Shown here: piece by piece, positions 7,665 through 56,323 of the stretch
Layout: every line of letters begins with the position of its first letter
How positions within the stretch are numbered: position 1 is the stretch's first letter
NCBI GenBank assembly: GCA_001800745.1
Contig: MGVZ01000029.1
Location: 9,133 to 73,132 of the forward strand
Direction: 5' to 3'
Length of the DNA stretch: 64,000 nucleotides
Source: Euryarchaeota archaeon RBG_16_67_27
Lineage (GTDB): Archaea > Thermoplasmatota > Thermoplasmata > RBG-16-68-12
The notes under the pieces: generated by a model
Told to the model about the DNA's origin: nothing
Seen by the model: the letters and a program-made list of their open reading frames with translations, nothing else
Databases searched by the model: none
Translations under genes and position numbers: made by a program

Positions 7665-7737
7665 TGCCGGGGGAGGGAGTCGAACCCCCTGGAAACCGAT
7701 CTGCAGTCGGTCACATTAGCCGCTCTGTCACCCCGGC
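7665..7737 (-). tRNA. tRNA-Cys (anticodon GCA)
   Basis: The minus-strand 73-nt sequence GCCGGGG-UG-ACAG..-ACCGA CUGCAGA UCGGU-..-GGGGG UUCGACU CCCUC-CCCCGGC-A has a 7-bp acceptor stem, an anticodon loop C-U-GCA-G-A, a T-loop GGUUCGACUCC, no intron and no encoded CCA. Confidence 0.85.
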
Positions 7738-21460: not shown

Positions 21461-21533
21461 GCCACCATAGCTCAGCCGGTAGAGCAGCCGCCTTGTAAGC
21501 GGCAGGTCGGGAGTTCAATTCTCCCTGGTGGCT
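21461..21533 (+). tRNA. tRNA-Thr (anticodon UGU)
   Basis: GCCACCA-UA-GCUC AGCCGGUA GAGC-A-GCCGC CUUGUAA GCGGC-AGGUC-GGGAG UUCAAUU CUCCC-UGGUGGC-U. It folds as a perfect cloverleaf with no intron and no encoded CCA. Confidence 0.9.
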
Positions 21534-21630
21534 CTCCCCGTGCCTCGCGATCCTCCTCTCTATTCCTAACGGAATTTCCAGTGTGGTCAGATATTAGTAG
21601 AACCGGTTCCTCTTTCCGCTTGGTGCGGAC

Positions 21631-38971: not shown

Positions 38972-39241
38972 CGGCGTTCCATGGACCGGCGGCCGTTAGA
39001 GCGGCACGGTTCGTCGTCCACCACAAGGATGGACGGCTAGCGTACCTAGGTCGCCGGCCCAAGCCCTCCTCAAAGGAGGGCAGGCTTCCCGCGGGCTCGC
39101 GCACCGCAGTACCGCAGGGAACGTGGGCGGGCTTAACTTCCGGGTTCGGGATGGGACCGGGTGTATCCCCGCCGCTTTGGCCGTCAAACCACTGCTGAGC
39201 GACGGAGAGGGCGCGCTGTATATCAGGGTTTCGTTCCCGCC

Positions 39242-45617: not shown

Positions 45618-46268
45618 TTGGCGCTCGACGCGGAGCTGCTCCAGATCGTGGGCCTTTCGTTCCTCGTCGCAGGCACGTCCACGCTCATCGGCTCCGTGAT
45701 CGGGATCCCGCTCGGCGCGATGATCGCCCTGAAAGAGTTCCGGGGACGCGACTTCGTCCGAACGCTCGCGTTCACCTTCTACGGATTCCCGCCCGTCCTC
45801 GCGGGGCTCCTCGTGTTCCTCCTCCTCTCGAAGGAGGGGCCGCTCGGCTCCCTCGAGTGGCTCTTCACCCCGATCGGCATGGTCGTCGCCCAGGTTCTCA
45901 TCGTCACGCCGATCGTCACGGGGATCACCGCGTCGGCGGTGATGAGCGTCGAGAAACGGCTCCACGAGACCGCGCTCGCGCTCGGCGCGGACGGACGGCA
46001 GTGGCGTGCGACCGCGCTCCACGAGGCCCGGGTCGGGCTTCTGACCGCGGTCATGCTCGGGTTCGGCCGGGCGATCTCCGAGGTCGGGGCGGTCCTCATC
46101 GTCGGCGGCAACATCCGGGGCTACACGCGCGTGCTGACGACCGCGATCGTCCTGGAGACCTCCCAAGCGCACTACGTCGAGGCGACGGTCTTCGGCGTCG
46201 TCCTCTTCGCAGTGTCGTTCGTCGTGTTCGCGGTCCTCCAGCGAGTGCAGGGGAGGGCCTTCCTGTGA
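45618..46268 (+). CDS. tupB: tungstate ABC transporter permease
   Basis: TTG start 1 bp after the tupA stop. Five to six TM helices. ABC-permease EAA-like loop (LGADGRQWRATALHEARVGLLTAVMLGFGRAISEVGA). Confidence 0.8.
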   Translation: MALDAELLQIVGLSFLVAGTSTLIGSVIGIPLGAMIALKEFRGRDFVRTLAFTFYGFPPVLAGLLVFLLLSKEGPLGSLEWLFTPIGMVVAQVLIVTPIVTGITASAVMSVEKRLHETALALGADGRQWRATALHEARVGLLTAVMLGFGRAISEVGAVLIVGGNIRGYTRVLTTAIVLETSQAHYVEATVFGVVLFAVSFVVFAVLQRVQGRAFL

Positions 46269-46999
46269 CCGCGCCGATCGTGATTGAGGCGGTCGAGAAG
46301 GCCTTCGGCGAGAAGGCCGTGCTCCGGGGCGTGAGCGCGGAGATCCAGCGGGGAGAGATTTTCGGCATCCTCGGCCCGAGCGGCGCGGGAAAGACGACCG
46401 TGCTCCGTCTCGTCGACCTCCTCCTCGCCCCGGACGCGGGGCGCATCCTTTTCCATGGGACCGCGCTCGACCCGCGCTCCCCGGAGGCCCTTGCCCAGCG
46501 GCGGCGGATGGCGATGATCATGCAGAATCCCGCCACGTTCCGTGCCTCCGTCTTCGAGAACGTCGCGTTCGGGCTGTGGCTCCGCGGCGCGGACGCAGCG
46601 GAGGTCCGGGCGAGGGTGTTCCAGGCGCTCGAGTTCGTCGGTCTCCTCGGCGCCGCGCGCGAGCGTGCGGACCGCCTGAGTGGCGGGGAGCAGCAGCGGA
46701 TTGCGTTCGCACGCGCGGCCGTCCTTCGGCCGGAGGTCCTCCTCCTTGACGAGTTCACCGCGAACCTCGATCCGGCGAACGTCCGGGCCCTCGAGGAGGC
46801 CACCCTGCGTTACCGAAGGGAGACGGGATGCACCGTGGTAATCGTGACGCACAACCTGTTCCAGGCGAAGCGGCTCGCGGATCGCGCGGCCCTCCTCCTT
46901 GACGGCCGTCTCGTCGAGGTCGCGCCCGCGAAGGACATCTTTGAGAACCCTCAGAGGGCGGAGACGCGGGCGTTCCTGACGGGGGAAATGGCGTACTGA
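46265..46999 (+). CDS. tupC: tungstate ABC transporter ATP-binding protein
   Basis: GTG start overlapping the tupB stop (GTGA). Walker A GPSGAGKTT, signature LSGGEQQRIAFARA, Walker B LLLDEFTANLD. Confidence 0.85.
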   Translation: MTAPIVIEAVEKAFGEKAVLRGVSAEIQRGEIFGILGPSGAGKTTVLRLVDLLLAPDAGRILFHGTALDPRSPEALAQRRRMAMIMQNPATFRASVFENVAFGLWLRGADAAEVRARVFQALEFVGLLGAARERADRLSGGEQQRIAFARAAVLRPEVLLLDEFTANLDPANVRALEEATLRYRRETGCTVVIVTHNLFQAKRLADRAALLLDGRLVEVAPAKDIFENPQRAETRAFLTGEMAY

Positions 47000-47003
47000 C
47001 GGA

Positions 47004-47264
47004 TCACACGAGGGTGACGTCGATCGCCTGGACGCTCCCGACCCCCGGGAGGGTCTGAAGGGATGCCTCGAGCCGGGCGGATCCTCCACCCGCGTCGTCG
47101 ACGACGGCGAGGGCATGGATGGCTTTGAGGCCGAACGCAACCGGCTTCTCTTCCATGCTCCGGAACGCGGTGCCCAATGCCGTGCGGACCGCGTCCTTGA
47201 GCGCGCCGAGGTCGACATCCTCGCCCTCGGGCATGACACGGTAGGTGATCGCGACGGACCCCAT
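47004..47264 (-). CDS. ef1b: translation elongation factor aEF-1 beta
   Basis: MGSVAITYRVMPEGEDVDLGALKDAV...PVAFGLKAIHALAVVDDAGGGSARLEASLQTLPGVGSVQAIDVTLV. This is the canonical archaeal EF1B. Confidence 0.9.
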   Translation of the reverse strand: MGSVAITYRVMPEGEDVDLGALKDAVRTALGTAFRSMEEKPVAFGLKAIHALAVVDDAGGGSARLEASLQTLPGVGSVQAIDVTLV

Positions 47265-47273
47265 CCTCGTCCC

Positions 47274-47444
47274 TCACGGTCCGTGGAAATCGCACGTCGG
47301 GCAGTGGTACGCCACGGACTGGTCCCGACAGCGCGCGCAGCGTCCGATTCTCGTCTTGCCGCAGCTCGGGCACCCGAAGACCGTCGCGCCCTTGCCGATG
47401 AGGACGGCACCACAGGAGGAGCAGCGCGATTCCGCGGGACTCAC
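47274..47444 (-). CDS. small Zn-ribbon protein (COG2888-like, conserved EF-1beta partner)
   Basis: Not in the ORF track. GTG start. (M)SPAESRCSSCGAVLIGKGATVFGCPSCGKTRIGRCARCRDQSVAYHCPTCDFHGP carries three CxxC pairs. It sits 9 bp upstream of ef1b on the same strand, with a TATA box just upstream. Confidence 0.7.
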   Translation of the reverse strand: MSPAESRCSSCGAVLIGKGATVFGCPSCGKTRIGRCARCRDQSVAYHCPTCDFHGP

Positions 47445-47465
47445 GGACGCGAGGAAAGAGCGGGG

Positions 47466-47475
47466 TCTATAAAAT
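47466..47475 (-). promoter_or_regulatory. TATA box (attttataga on minus strand) for the Zn-ribbon/ef1b operon
   Basis: About 25 bp upstream of the GTG at 47444. Confidence 0.5.
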
Positions 47476-47577
47476 GTTGTGGGGCTCGGCGACCGCCCCT
47501 AATTTCATTTCAATTCTGAAATAAATATAGATCCTCGGCGGGCAGGCGCCGGCGCTGGTCGCCCCTTGTGCACCGCA

Positions 47578-47589
47578 AAGTTTAATTAC
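47578..47589 (+). promoter_or_regulatory. BRE/TATA-like element (gcaaagtttaattac) upstream of tRNA-Lys
   Basis: About 50 bp upstream of the tRNA 5' end. A second AT-rich block (47508-47545) lies further upstream. Confidence 0.35.
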
Positions 47590-47635
47590 GGCCGCAGATT
47601 TCGACCGTGGTCGCATGTCGCCGCCGCTAGCCCGA

Positions 47636-47797
47636 GGGCCCGTAGCTCAGCTAGGTTGGACGGCGAACCCGTCGTCCCTAGAAAGAGCATCTGGCTTTTA
47701 GCCGCGCCCCTCGCGGGGTGCGGGTGGAAACCAGGTGGTCCGGGGTTCGAACGGGTCCTGCGACCCGCGCGGGGCCTCGAAAGTCCCCGCGGGCCCG
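47636..47797 (+). tRNA. tRNA-Lys (anticodon UUU) with three putative introns (D-loop, canonical 37/38, after T-loop)
   Basis: A 7-bp acceptor stem is formed by the ends of the 162-nt stretch (GGGCCCG / CGGGCCC + G). D-stem GCUC/GAGC is split by about 27 nt. Anticodon stem UCUGG/CCAGG carries loop CUUUUA, followed by a 29-nt insert. T-stem CGGGG/CCCCG with T-loop UUCGAAC is followed by a 32-nt insert. The spliced length is 74 nt. Confidence 0.7.
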
Positions 47798-47872: not shown

Positions 47873-48109
47873 ATGGAGCATCAGCTCGTACCAGAGCACC
47901 GCCTCGTTTCCGAGGAAGAGGCGGAGCGGATCTTGAAGGCCCTGCGGATTACCCGAGACCAGCTGCCGAAGATCCGGCGGAGCGACCCGGTGATCCAGCT
48001 CCTCGAGCGGATCGAGGGCCCGATTGATGAGGGCCGGATCATCCGAGTCACCCGCGTGAGCAGCACCGCGGGCGTGTCCGAAGCGTACCGCCTCGTCATC
48101 GGGAGGTAG
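47873..48109 (+). CDS. rpoH: DNA-directed RNA polymerase subunit H (Rpb5 homologue)
   Basis: MEHQLVPEHRLVSEEEAERILKALRITRDQLPKIRRSDPVIQ... The start may instead be the TTG at 47858 (MRFNVMEHQ). Confidence 0.85.
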   Translation: MEHQLVPEHRLVSEEEAERILKALRITRDQLPKIRRSDPVIQLLERIEGPIDEGRIIRVTRVSSTAGVSEAYRLVIGR

Positions 48110-48112
48110 ACC

Positions 48113-51100
48113 ATGCGCGAGCTCATCGACGCGTTCTTTCGCGAGCGATCGATCGTGAACCACCACACCGCCTCGTTCAATGACTTCCTTCCCACGATCG
48201 ACAACCCGAACTCGCGGATGCAGCGGATCGTGGACAACCACCGGTCCTCGCCCGAGGACGAACGCCGGGGGATCATCAAGCTCGACGAGGACCGCACGGA
48301 AGGCGACATCATCGAGATCCGGATCGGGCGGAAGCGGGACGAGCGCGGGCGGATCGACATCGAGGCGAAGCCGACGATCGCCCTCGGCCTCCCCGTCGTC
48401 AAGGAGGCGAACGGCGCCACCCACGCGCTCTCGCCCATGGAAGCCCGCCTCCGGAATCTGAACTACACCGCGCCGATTTACCTCGACTTCACGGTCATCG
48501 AGAACGGCATCGAACGGGAGCCGGAGCGCGTCCACATCGGGAACCTCCCGATCATGACGAAGTCGAAGAAGTGCCTTCTGTACAAGGAGAACCTGGAGAC
48601 GGAGGGCGAGCTCACCCTCGACGAGTATCGCCGGAAGCTCATCGAGAAGGGCGAGGACCCGTGCGACCCGGGCGGGTACTATATCATCGGCGGCACGGAA
48701 CGCACGCTCATCTCCCTCGAGGACCTCGCGCCGAACCGCGTCCTCGTGGAGTTCAACGAGCGCTACGGGAGGAAGGTCGAGGTCGCGAAGGTCTTCTCCC
48801 AGAAGGAGGGGTACCGCGCCCTCACTCTGATGGAGAAGAAGAAGGACGGTCAGCTCATCGTATCCGTGCCGACGGCATCCGGCCAGATCCCGTTGATCAT
48901 CCTCATGAAGGCACTGGGGATGGAGAAGGACTCCGAGATCCACGACGCGGTCGTGTCCCACCCCGCGATGGCGAACATCGTCTACGCGAACATCGAGGAA
49001 GTGAAGAACAAGAAGCTGTACCCGCCGAACGGCATCCTCACGCGGGACGACGCGATCAACTACCTGGAGAAGAAGTTCGCGACGGGCCAGGCGAAGGAGT
49101 ACCGGACGAAGAAGGTCGAGTCGATCCTCGACCGGTCTCTCCTCCCCCACCTCGGCGACGCCCGTGAAGACCGGATCAAGAAGGCGATCTTCCTCGGCCG
49201 CGTCGCGCGCACGGTCCTCGAGCTCTCCCTCGGGAAGCGCCGCGAGGACGACAAGGACCACTACGCGAACAAGCGCCTCAAGCTCGCGGGGGACCTCATG
49301 GAGGACCTCTTCCGGGTCGCGTTCGCGAACCTGATCAAGGACCTCAAGTACCAGCTCGAGCGGTCGTACGCTCGGCGGCGCGAACTGAAGATCGCGTCCG
49401 CAATCCGGCCGGACCTCCTCACGCAGCGCCTCCTCCACGCCCTGGCGACGGGGAACTGGGTCGGCGGACGGGCGGGCGTCAGCCAGCTTCTCGACCGGAC
49501 CTCGAACATGTCCACCCTGAGCCACCTGCGACGGGTGACGAGCCCCCTCACGCGGTCCCAGCCGCATTTCGAGGCGCGCGACCTGCACCCGACGCAGTGG
49601 GGCCGGCTCTGCCCCAACGAGACGCCGGAAGGCCAGAACTGCGGCCTGGTGAAGAACTGCGCTCTCGTCATCGACGTGTCCGAAGGCTTCCCCGACGACG
49701 AGGTGAAGATCCTCCTCGCGGACCTGGGCACGAAGCAGGTGAAAGGTCAGCAGACGACGTACACGCGGGTGTACGTGAACGGCGACCTCGTCGGGCTCCA
49801 CGAGGACCCGCACATGCTCGTCGCCGAGATCCGGGAGCGGCGGCGGAGCGGCCTACTCAGCCATGAGGTCAACGTCCGGTACGACGAGAACATGGGGGAG
49901 ATCATCATCAACTGCGACGAGGGCCGCATCCGCAGGCCCCTCCTCGTCGCGAAGGAGGGCCACCTCTCCCTGACGAAGAAGCACCTCGAGGACCTTCGTC
50001 TCGGGCGCACCCGCTTCTCCGACCTGATCCGGAACGGCGTTGTCGAGTGGATCGACGCGGAGGAGGAAGAGGACACGTACATCGCGATCTACCCCTACGA
50101 CGTCCCGAGCCGCTGCAAGGAGTGCAAGCGTCCCCTGAGCCGGAACGACGTGTCGTGGGTGAACATGGGCGCGAAGGAGGACGAGATCGAGCTCGAGTGC
50201 CAGGAGTGCCACAAGTCGTTCCGCGTGAAGCCGCATGTCTCCCGAGAGACGACGCATCTCGAGGTCGACCCGATGGTCATCCTCGGCGTCGCCTCGGGCC
50301 TCGTCCCGTACCCCGAGCACAACTCGTCCCCTCGCGTCACGATGGGCGCGGGGATGGCGAAACAGTCCCTCGGCCTCGGGGCGAGCAACTACCGCGCCCG
50401 CCCGGACACGCGGAGCCATCTCCTCCACTACCCGCAGAAGCCGCTCGTCCAGACGGACTCGATGCCGTATGTGTCGTTCAACGAGAGGCCCGCGGGACAG
50501 AACTTCGTCGTCGGCGTGATGTCCTACCATGGCTACAACATGGAGGACGCGATCGTGATGAACAAGGCGTCGATCGAGCGTGGCCTCGGCCGGTCCTCGT
50601 TCATGCGGACGTACCGGGCGGAGGAGCGGCGATACCCCGGCGGCCAGGAGGACCACTTCGAGATCCCTTCGCCCGACGTGCGAGGCGCTCGGGCCGACCT
50701 GAGCTATGCGAGCCTCACCCCGGACGATGGTCTGATCTCCCCGGAGGTCCTGGTCACGGGGGGTGAGGTGCTGATCGGGAAGACGAGCCCTCCGCGGTTC
50801 CTGGAGGAGGAGACGGACTTCCTCACGCCCCAGAAGCGTCGGGAGACGTCGATCACGGTCCGCCACGGCGAGAGCGGATGGGTCGACTCCGTCATGCTCA
50901 CGGAGAGCGAGAACGGGTCGAAGCTCGCGAAGGTCAAGGTCCGGGACCTCCGCGTCCCGGAGCTCGGGGACAAGTTCGCCTCCCGCCACGGGCAGAAGGG
51001 CGTAATCGGGCTGATCGCGTCCCAAGAGGACATGCCGTTCACGGGCCAGGGCATCATCCCCGACCTGATCATCAACCCCCACGCGATCCCATCGCGCATG

Positions 51101-51702
51101 ACCGTCGCGCACGTCCTCGAACAGATCGGCGGCAAGGTCGCCTCGTTCGAGGGCCGGGACATCGACGGGACCCCGTTCAGCGGCGAGCGCGAGGAGTCCC
51201 TCCGGAAGGCGCTCGAGGAGGCCGGCTTCCGGTCGAACGGAAAGGAGATCCTGTACGACGGGAAGACGGGGCGGATGATTCCCGCGGAGATCTTCATCGG
51301 CGTGATCTACTACCAGAAGCTCCACCACATGGTCTCCGGGAAGCTCCACGTGCGGAGCCGCGGACCCGTGCAGATCCTCACGCGTCAGCCGACGGAGGGG
51401 CGCTCCCGCCAGGGCGGCCTCCGGTTCGGTGAGATGGAGCGAGACTGCCTGATCGGCCACGGCGCGGCCATGGTGATCAAGGACCGCCTGCTCGACGAGT
51501 CGGACGGGACGATCCAGTACGTCTGCGGGAACCCCGACTGCGGCCACTTCGCGATCAAGGACCGGAAAGGGAACCTTCGCTGCCCTGTGTGCGAGAACAC
51601 GTCGAAGATCTACCCGGTGCAAACGTCGTACGCGTTCAAGCTCCTCCTTGACGAGCTCCTGTCCCTCGGCGTCGCCATGCGCCTGCAGCTGGAGGACCTC
51701 AA

Positions 51703-51706
<4 letters not shown>
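48113..51706 (+). CDS. rpoB: DNA-directed RNA polymerase subunit B (unsplit)
   Basis: 1197 aa. It carries all Rpb2 conserved regions in a single ORF and ends with a [11 protein letters not shown] zinc ribbon. Confidence 0.97.

Positions 51707-56323
<4,617 letters not shown>

Follow-up and report, generated by a model that had tools for sequence, protein, structure and literature searches.

We identified an interrupted tRNA-Lys(UUU) gene of 162 nucleotides (nt) in a 64,000-nt stretch of contig MGVZ01000029.1 from Euryarchaeota archaeon RBG_16_67_27 (the whole stretch is hereafter called the window). The gene lies on the forward strand at positions 47636–47797 and consists of four collinear exons separated by three introns. 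Judging from its sequence, it very probably functions as the tRNA-Lys(UUU) gene in a soil Thermoplasmata archaeon, with introns of the protein-spliced bulge-helix-bulge (BHB) type between tRNA positions 20 and 21, 37 and 38, and 59 and 60. This reading is carried by the exon/intron boundaries, the BHB folds, the covariation of the paired bases, and the presence–absence polymorphism of the introns among orthologues. Removal of the three introns gave a 74-nt product, GGGCCCGTAGCTCAGCTAGGTAGAGCATCTGGCTTTTAACCAGGTGGTCCGGGGTTCGAATCCCCGCGGGCCCG, which was called by ARAGORN as tRNA-Lys(ttt) with a perfect cloverleaf and every stem intact. Hence, the original prediction, which had proposed a tRNA-Lys(UUU) with three introns, including non-canonical ones in the D-loop and T-loop, was borne out, and both the sequence at this location and the 74-nt spliced form with intact helices were as it had described.

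The gene was read as GGGCCCG UA GCUC AGCUAGGU (27 nt) A GAGC A UCUGG CUUUUA (29 nt) A CCAGG UGGUC CGGGG UUCGAA (32 nt) U CCCCG CGGGCCC G, where the numbers in parentheses stand for the introns (Table 1). The acceptor, D, anticodon, and T stems of the spliced product comprised 7, 4, 5, and 5 bp, respectively; the D-loop was AGCUAGGUA, the anticodon loop CUUUUAA, the T-loop UUCGAAU, and the discriminator base G. CCA was not encoded, the bases after exon 4 being CAC. The third insert had previously been placed directly after the T-loop; the BHB geometry and the intron-less orthologues located it inside the loop (UUCGAA/U, the slash marking the splice site). A TATA-box-like element, TTTAATTA, was present upstream of the gene and is presumed from its sequence to be the archaeal promoter of the tRNA-Lys gene. 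A TATA-like A/T-rich hexamer or octamer was observed at a similar upstream distance in most orthologous loci.

Table 1 Features of the tRNA-Lys(UUU) locus and of the surrounding window.
Feature	Position	Strand	Description
Exon 1	47636..47656	+	Acceptor-stem 5' strand, U8 A9, D-stem 5' strand, D-loop positions 14–20 (AGCUAGGU); identical or nearly so in 71 orthologues
Intron 1, 27 nt	47657..47683	+	D-loop, between positions 20 and 21
Exon 2	47684..47700	+	A21, D-stem 3' strand, position 26, anticodon-stem 5' strand, loop positions 32–37 (CUUUUA; anticodon UUU)
Intron 2, 29 nt	47701..47729	+	Anticodon loop, canonical 37/38 site
Exon 3	47730..47751	+	A38, anticodon-stem 3' strand, variable loop UGGUC, T-stem 5' strand, T-loop positions 54–59 (UUCGAA)
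Intron 3, 32 nt	47752..47783	+	Within T-loop, between positions 59 and 60
Exon 4	47784..47797	+	U60, T-stem 3' strand, acceptor-stem 3' strand, discriminator G73
TATA-box-like element TTTAATTA	47581..47588	+	About 48–55 nt upstream of the mature 5' end; preceded by AAAG (47577–47588 together)
rpoH (RNA polymerase subunit H/Rpb5)	47873..48109	+	Pfam PF01191, E = 2.5e-23; 76 nt downstream of the tRNA; first gene of rpoH-rpoB-rpoA'
rpoB	48113..51706		Unsplit, 1197 amino acids (aa); downstream of rpoH
rpoA'	51703..54492		After rpoB
tRNA-Cys	7665..7737	-	Found by standard detection
tRNA-Thr	21461..21534	+	Found by standard detection
5S rRNA gene	39068..39188	-	Stand-alone; Rfam 73.9 bits
ABC-transporter ATPase gene	45857..46999	+	
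Non-coding stretch, ~640 nt	47000..47635		Between the ABC-transporter ATPase gene and the tRNA
A/T-rich islands	~47468..47480 and ~47503..47531		Within the non-coding stretch
Unsupported 134-aa open reading frame (ORF)	47115..47519		Overlaps the non-coding stretch

In a BHB, two 3-nt bulges flank a 4-bp helix, and the archaeal splicing endonuclease EndA cleaves each bulge between its second and third bases (PMC3239211, PMC6379350). We set the splice sites from the mature tRNA sequence alone and inspected the geometry afterwards. Folding of the junctions, a check proposed with the original prediction, showed that all three introns fit a BHB geometry of the 3-4-3 type, strict for the T-loop intron, with a weak helix for the anticodon intron, and relaxed for the D-loop intron. 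At intron 3, the T-stem was stacked on the central helix UUCG/CGAA, which was flanked by the bulges AA/C and AG/U and followed by an intron helix of at least 6 bp, constituting a strict hBHBh' motif. This BHB was unchanged in the minimum free energy (MFE) fold of the whole precursor, and the local MFE fold departed from it in a single pair, at a difference of 0.3 kcal/mol. The register TCGA/TCGA was rejected for intron 3 as it would make a 9-nt T-loop, while UUCG/CGAA gives the loop UUCGAAU in agreement with the orthologues. Intron 1 showed the central helix CUAG (positions 16–19)/CUAG, a 5' bulge GU/U, an 8-bp intron hairpin, and a 3' bulge AA/A21, and this conformer was the local minimum-energy fold; its 5' site fits the strict motif and its 3' site fits the relaxed HBh' definition only. 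The spacing at intron 2 was exactly 3-4-3, with an intron hairpin of 9 bp. The fold energy of the 162-nt RNA was −101.5 kcal/mol (z = −5.9 against dinucleotide shuffles), and the MFE fold of the whole precursor included the D-loop and T-loop BHBs.

Alternative BHB registers for intron 2 were tried by hand, and none combined the 3-4-3 geometry with a valid anticodon loop. The anticodon arm (47690–47735 of the window and the same region in L001–L033) was folded for nine genes with the anticodon intron; in all nine, the loop UUUU could pair with a GAAA-type tail at the 3' end of the intron in a shifted register, and this fold was 3–11 kcal/mol more stable than the BHB conformer. The shifted fold may reflect only the limits of the energy model, or it may be a competitor that has to be resolved by the enzyme or by the tRNA body.

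We compared the gene with its homologues in related genomes. Across the clade of the window, the spliced sequence was 96–100% identical to that of the window, and the identities of the D-loop, anticodon, and T-loop introns were 61–93%, 36–69%, and 53–85%, respectively. The BHB cores were aligned in a fixed register anchored at the splice sites, i.e., by position rather than by fitting a structure. In the 34 distinct D-loop cores, 95.8% of the cells were paired and 8 pairs had changed on both sides (covariation score 0.50). The corresponding values were 91.7%, 7 pairs, and 0.41 for the T-loop (38 distinct cores), and 92.4%, 6 pairs, and 0.45 for the anticodon (16 distinct cores). When the partners were slid by 1–3 columns, 26–69% of the cells were paired (26–47% for the D-loop) and the covariation was 0.04–0.17. 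The observed covariation score was reached by 0 of 500 shuffles, a count that is not a probability because the core sequences are related. The central helix of the D-loop intron covaried between exon and intron (CUAG/CUAG, GUAG/CUAC, CCAG/CUGG, CCCG/CGGG, GUCG/CGAU, and UCCG/CGGG). The central helix of the anticodon intron formed 4 of 4 pairs in most relatives (GAAG, AAAG, GAGG, and AGAG) and was degenerate in the window and in two related loci, L001 and L007. Thus, compensatory change keeps the BHB helices among the homologues in all three intron classes.

Of the 80 related loci retrieved, 71 had a tRNA-Lys(UUU) gene upstream of rpoH, so that the order tRNA-Lys(UUU)-rpoH-rpoB-rpoA' is conserved across Thermoplasmata and rpoH serves as a synteny anchor; among the other nine, seven were cut off too near rpoB to be judged and two lacked the gene within 6 kb. 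In these two (L014, accession number CP070736.1, and L063), the full 6 kb upstream of rpoB was available and tRNA-Lys(UUU) was absent there, indicating that the synteny is broken. The gene of the window and its 71 orthologues all parsed into the same four exons, with introns only at 20/21, 37/38, and 59/60. No intron was present in 20 of these 72 genes; five carried a single intron (the T-loop intron in three and the D-loop intron in two), 34 carried two (D-loop and T-loop in 30, D-loop and anticodon in four), and 13 carried all three. The intron-less orthologues showed nearly the same 74 nt as a contiguous exon sequence; for example, L068 matched 71 of the 74 bases. Identity to the tRNA of the window was 89–100% in 16 loci compared, and the most distant locus shared 61 of the 74 bases.

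The distribution of the introns was examined on a neighbour-joining tree of RpoB, in which L028 and L031 were misplaced as the wrong ORF had been picked, and which was used for broad clades only. Loci labelled Thermoplasmatales, DHVE2, and Methanomethylophilaceae had no introns. The D-loop and T-loop introns were found together in Methanomassiliicoccus, in a halophilic Natronoplasma-type clade, and in a second high-GC soil clade, and the anticodon intron was restricted to the window's own Methanomassiliicoccales-related clade. On this reading of the tree, the D-loop and T-loop introns are present in several Thermoplasmata orders. Such a series from zero to three introns at one syntenic gene provides a clean system for studying the gain and loss of tRNA introns.

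Two further observations concern individual members of the set. The loci L028, L034, L055, and L061, labelled Methanomethylophilaceae, Methanoplasma, or Methanomassiliicoccaceae (L061 under a bacterial name), carried no introns, and Methanomassiliicoccus, on the same RpoB branch as the intron-less metagenome-assembled genomes (MAGs) of Methanomethylophilaceae type, has kept two. This suggests that the Methanomethylophilaceae-type MAGs lost the introns, possibly in connection with genome streamlining. The longest tRNA-Lys introns of the set (51, 67, and 34 nt) were observed in L024 (CP070751.1, 'Thermoplasmata archaeon bin33 chromosome'), which at 5,156,303 bp is unusually large for a Thermoplasmata record.

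We also examined whether automated callers recognize the gene. The unspliced gene was called neither by ARAGORN with default settings nor by Rfam, either at gathering thresholds or at E ≤ 10, and ARAGORN with a lowered threshold and intron options returned only spurious Ser and Arg calls. Automated calling thus recovered the spliced form (by ARAGORN) and missed the unspliced one. As neither ARAGORN nor Rfam detects the gene, tRNA-Lys(UUU) may be misreported as absent from genomes of this clade. The other two tRNA genes of the window, tRNA-Cys and tRNA-Thr, have no introns, as had been claimed. We then applied a disruption-tolerant scan that required a 7-bp acceptor pairing up to ~400 nt apart, U8, A14, GG, and a GTTCRA T-arm, and that allowed a T-loop insert of at most 130 nt. 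On both strands of the window (128 kb), it gave exactly three matches, namely tRNA-Cys, tRNA-Thr, and the tRNA-Lys locus. In 1.06 Mb of related loci (2.1 Mb of strands), approximately 2–3 spurious matches were obtained besides orthologues and class II tRNAs.

Other origins of the inserts were considered and rejected. A self-splicing group I or group II intron was rejected because the inserts are only 27, 29, and 32 nt long and gave no Rfam intron match at E ≤ 10; a split or permuted tRNA gene, because the four exons are collinear within 162 nt; and an assembly artefact, because the identical structure is present in dozens of independent assemblies. Insertion of a mobile element was likewise considered and rejected.

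By analogy with established archaeal tRNA splicing, from which the cleavage and ligation steps and their enzymes are taken, the following pathway can be proposed. The gene would be transcribed from its own TATA-type promoter into a precursor of ~185 nt, in which each exon–intron junction would fold into a BHB. EndA would then cut at six sites, once in each 3-nt bulge between its second and third bases, to give fragments of 21, 27, 17, 29, 22, 32, and 14 nt. The four exons would be joined by an RtcB-type ligase, and RNase P, 3' trimming, and CCA addition would produce the finished 74-nt tRNA.

Several points weigh against a functional gene spliced in this manner. Facing the 3' bulge of intron 1 are A14 and G15, which are unpaired and sit between the D-stem and the central helix, so that a 3 × 2 internal loop is formed; the motif is therefore relaxed (HBh' class) and not strict, and the α'2-type EndA of A. 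fulgidus is known to remove poorly the HBh' D-loop intron of Methanopyrus kandleri tRNA-Glu (PMC5829648). The central helix of intron 2 in the window, CUUU/GUGG, formed three of four pairs (C-G, U-G, and U-G) around a U·U mismatch, and the stability of a competing register, UUUUA:UGGAA, exceeded that of the BHB conformer by 10.8 kcal/mol. Neither EndA nor the ligase was detected in the window or in the related loci, and a second, intron-less copy of tRNA-Lys(UUU) may lie elsewhere in the genome, outside the 64-kb window.

Such a copy would be required if the locus were a decaying tRNA pseudogene with accumulated insertions, the work being done by a separate intact tRNA-Lys(UUU). This explanation would account for the failure of the standard detectors and for the imperfect central helix of intron 2 in the window, and only 64 kb of the genome is visible. 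However, the exons of the clade stayed 96–100% identical while the inserts diverged to 36–93%, the BHB pairing of those inserts was kept by compensatory changes, and the four exons of a pseudogene would not stay perfect in more than 50 genomes. Moreover, Thermoplasmatales and DHVE2 carry an intron-less tRNA-Lys(UUU) at the syntenic locus, and the promoter-like element upstream is conserved. We consider a pseudogene highly improbable. A tRNA-like cloverleaf could also arise by chance when three freely chosen segments are cut from GC-rich DNA, in which many helices form, and the boundaries were first chosen by eye. Nevertheless, the equally free scan described above found just three real tRNAs on the strands of the window and ~2–3 false ones in 2.1 Mb, the product has the conserved tRNA residues and the 89–100% identity to the orthologues compared, and the boundaries coincide with the 3-4-3 BHB geometry, which was not used in choosing them; the probability of a chance cloverleaf is negligible. 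Because of the conservation pattern and the orthologues, both explanations were excluded in favor of a functional gene with BHB-type introns.

A separate question is which endonuclease processes these introns. The α4 and α'2 EndAs are described as needing the strict 3-4-3 motif (PMC3239211), Cluster II Euryarchaeota are described as having only the α'2 EndA (PMC5829648), and the EndA of T. acidophilum is an α'2 enzyme of narrow specificity (PMC6379350). In line with the original prediction, which suggested a relaxed-specificity endonuclease, one may suppose that the introns are real and that the lineage needs an endonuclease of broadened specificity, either an α'2 EndA with new RNA contacts or a second EndA-type subunit, through enzyme–substrate co-evolution in Thermoplasmata. 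A14 and G15 lie opposite the 3' bulge of the D-loop intron, in an HBh'-like arrangement, in all 50 genes that carry it; the window, L001, and L007 retain intron 2 central helices in which only 2–3 of 4 pairs form; and the A. fulgidus enzyme is inefficient on an HBh' D-loop intron, as noted above. On the other side, two of the three introns have the standard 3-4-3 geometry, and the α'2 EndA of A. fulgidus can cut weak 37/38 motifs with the help of the mature tRNA body (PMC6379350), so that introns 2 and 3 alone do not demand a relaxed enzyme. In addition, the D-stem still closes the 3' loop of intron 1, and hence the distortion is small. For the intron 1 junction itself, broadened specificity is a reasonable hypothesis because of the HBh'-like arrangement in all 50 genes and the poor removal by the A. 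fulgidus enzyme; for the lineage as a whole, it is a tentative possibility, and the original inference of a relaxed enzyme is not supported in the form in which it was given.

We searched for the endonuclease itself. A hidden Markov model derived from EndA gave no match in the six-frame translations of the window and the 80 loci. Protein-database searches returned Aenigmarchaeota and Archaeoglobi proteins with the catalytic unit of A. fulgidus, low-GC Thermoplasmatota proteins with a mixed EndA profile, and ANME-1-like proteins with the query P0138; none of these matches was tied to this clade. An HMMER search of a representative library with the Thermoplasmatota EndA P0123 yielded 150 two-unit (α'2-like) proteins of roughly 300–390 aa, including P0266 from a high-GC 'Thermoplasmata archaeon'. 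Alignment of 13 two-unit homologues indicated that the Tyr/His/Lys positions were conserved and that the catalytic unit had no large insert. These Thermoplasmata-type homologues, P0266 among them, are two-unit α'2 proteins of 313–375 aa without a CSL-like large insert; none is linked to this clade or to an intron-bearing genome, and they argue weakly against an exotic enzyme. Among the homologues, the high-GC proteins (P0266, P0276, P0285, P0298, and others) had a full N-terminal subdomain of ~25–40 residues in the first (structural) unit, which was absent in the low-GC Thermoplasmatota proteins P0108 and P0123. This difference could be real or could be due to a start-codon miscall.

A broader scenario is that much of Thermoplasmata kept relaxed HBh'-type D-loop introns together with T-loop introns in tRNA-Lys(UUU) across several orders, that the clade of the window added the third, and that the Thermoplasmata α'2 EndA is broader than the paradigms of A. 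fulgidus and T. acidophilum without known specificity loops. We consider this scenario unlikely. If true, it would represent a further independent route to the processing of disrupted tRNAs. The series of genes with zero to three introns would also be useful for asking if an α'2 enzyme handles the relaxed D-loop motif.

The three sites are all catalogued tRNA intron positions (PMC4090602), and three introns are the known maximum per tRNA gene (PMC3239211, PMC8450103). The tRNAscan-SE 2.0 survey, which covered 217 archaeal genomes, recorded 16 three-intron genes, all in Thermoproteales (PMC8450103, Supplementary Table S7), and the 144 Euryarchaeota surveyed had no three-intron gene and only 7 two-intron genes (PMC8450103). 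The original prediction that multi-intron tRNAs are known mainly from Thermoproteales agrees with the literature searched, which places three-intron tRNAs only there (PMC8450103, Table S7). According to reviews, a euryarchaeal tRNA gene has no more than a single intron, located canonically, as the α4 and α'2 endonucleases are strict (PMC4090602), and a 2014 list of lineages with multi-intron tRNAs did not include Thermoplasmata (PMC4033280). A description of these Thermoplasmata tRNA-Lys introns was not found in the literature searched. The gene thus belongs to a known kind, the archaeal tRNAs with several BHB-spliced introns, and adds a new lineage to those with the three-intron form; together with its 71 orthologues, it marks a second lineage with the maximal three-intron layout, which would be a mild surprise to a specialist.

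The gene resembles known systems in different respects. Like Thermoproteales genes, e.g., Pyrobaculum tRNA-Pro(UGG) with introns at 25/26, 37/38, and 56/57 (Sugahara et al. 2007/2008, as cited in PMC4090602), it carries three short BHB-flanked introns, of which one is at the canonical site and the others are at non-canonical sites in the D-arm and T-arm regions. In contrast, its host is a Thermoplasmata euryarchaeon and not a crenarchaeote, Cluster II Euryarchaeota are described with the α'2 EndA alone and not with the broad-specificity (αβ)2 type (PMC5829648), and one tRNA gene in the window is disrupted, the other two being intron-less. The pre-tRNA-Glu(UUC) of Methanopyrus kandleri is also euryarchaeal and combines a relaxed HBh' D-loop intron ending before A21 with a 37/38 intron (PMC5829648); it differs in having two introns and an (αβ)2 EndA, whereas the gene of the window has a third intron at 59/60 and belongs to another isoacceptor and another class. 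A T-loop intron at 59/60 is shared with ARMAN-2 (Ca. Micrarchaeum), which has introns at 59/60 and 53/54 and some strict hBHBh' motifs (PMC3239211). Unlike the present case, ARMAN-2 uses a three-unit ε2 EndA and has interruptions in 56% of its tRNA genes, and its tRNA-Cys 59/60 intron is a relaxed hBH (PMC3239211), whereas that of the window is strict. Further records are those of three Methanomassiliicoccales genomes in the survey, with 6 non-canonical introns and one two-intron gene (PMC8450103, Supplementary Table S7). They are from the same broad lineage and fit the D-loop plus T-loop form observed in the Methanomassiliicoccus loci L019, L022, and L023; they include no three-intron gene (PMC8450103), and as the table names no genes, their identity as tRNA-Lys(UUU) is inferred.

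The host was assigned by comparison of RpoB. The identity of the window RpoB was 87–92% to soil metagenome-assembled Thermoplasmata, 73–84% to MAGs labelled Methanomassiliicoccales or Methanomassiliicoccus, and ~60% to Thermoplasmatales. By this comparison, the host is a soil Thermoplasmata archaeon related to Methanomassiliicoccales, which confirmed the euryarchaeal context claimed earlier; the claim of an unsplit rpoB was also correct. The gap between tRNA-Lys(UUU) and rpoH was ~20–80 nt in many genomes, which raises the question of a transcript shared with the RNA polymerase operon. The 5S rRNA gene stood alone, and within the 64-kb window Rfam reported neither a 16S nor a 23S gene, in keeping with the unlinked rRNA genes that have been described for Thermoplasmatales and Methanomassiliicoccales (PMC4153887). 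Upstream of the tRNA, the unsupported ORF overlapped the non-coding stretch, and the two A/T-rich islands of this stretch lay in otherwise 64%-GC DNA.

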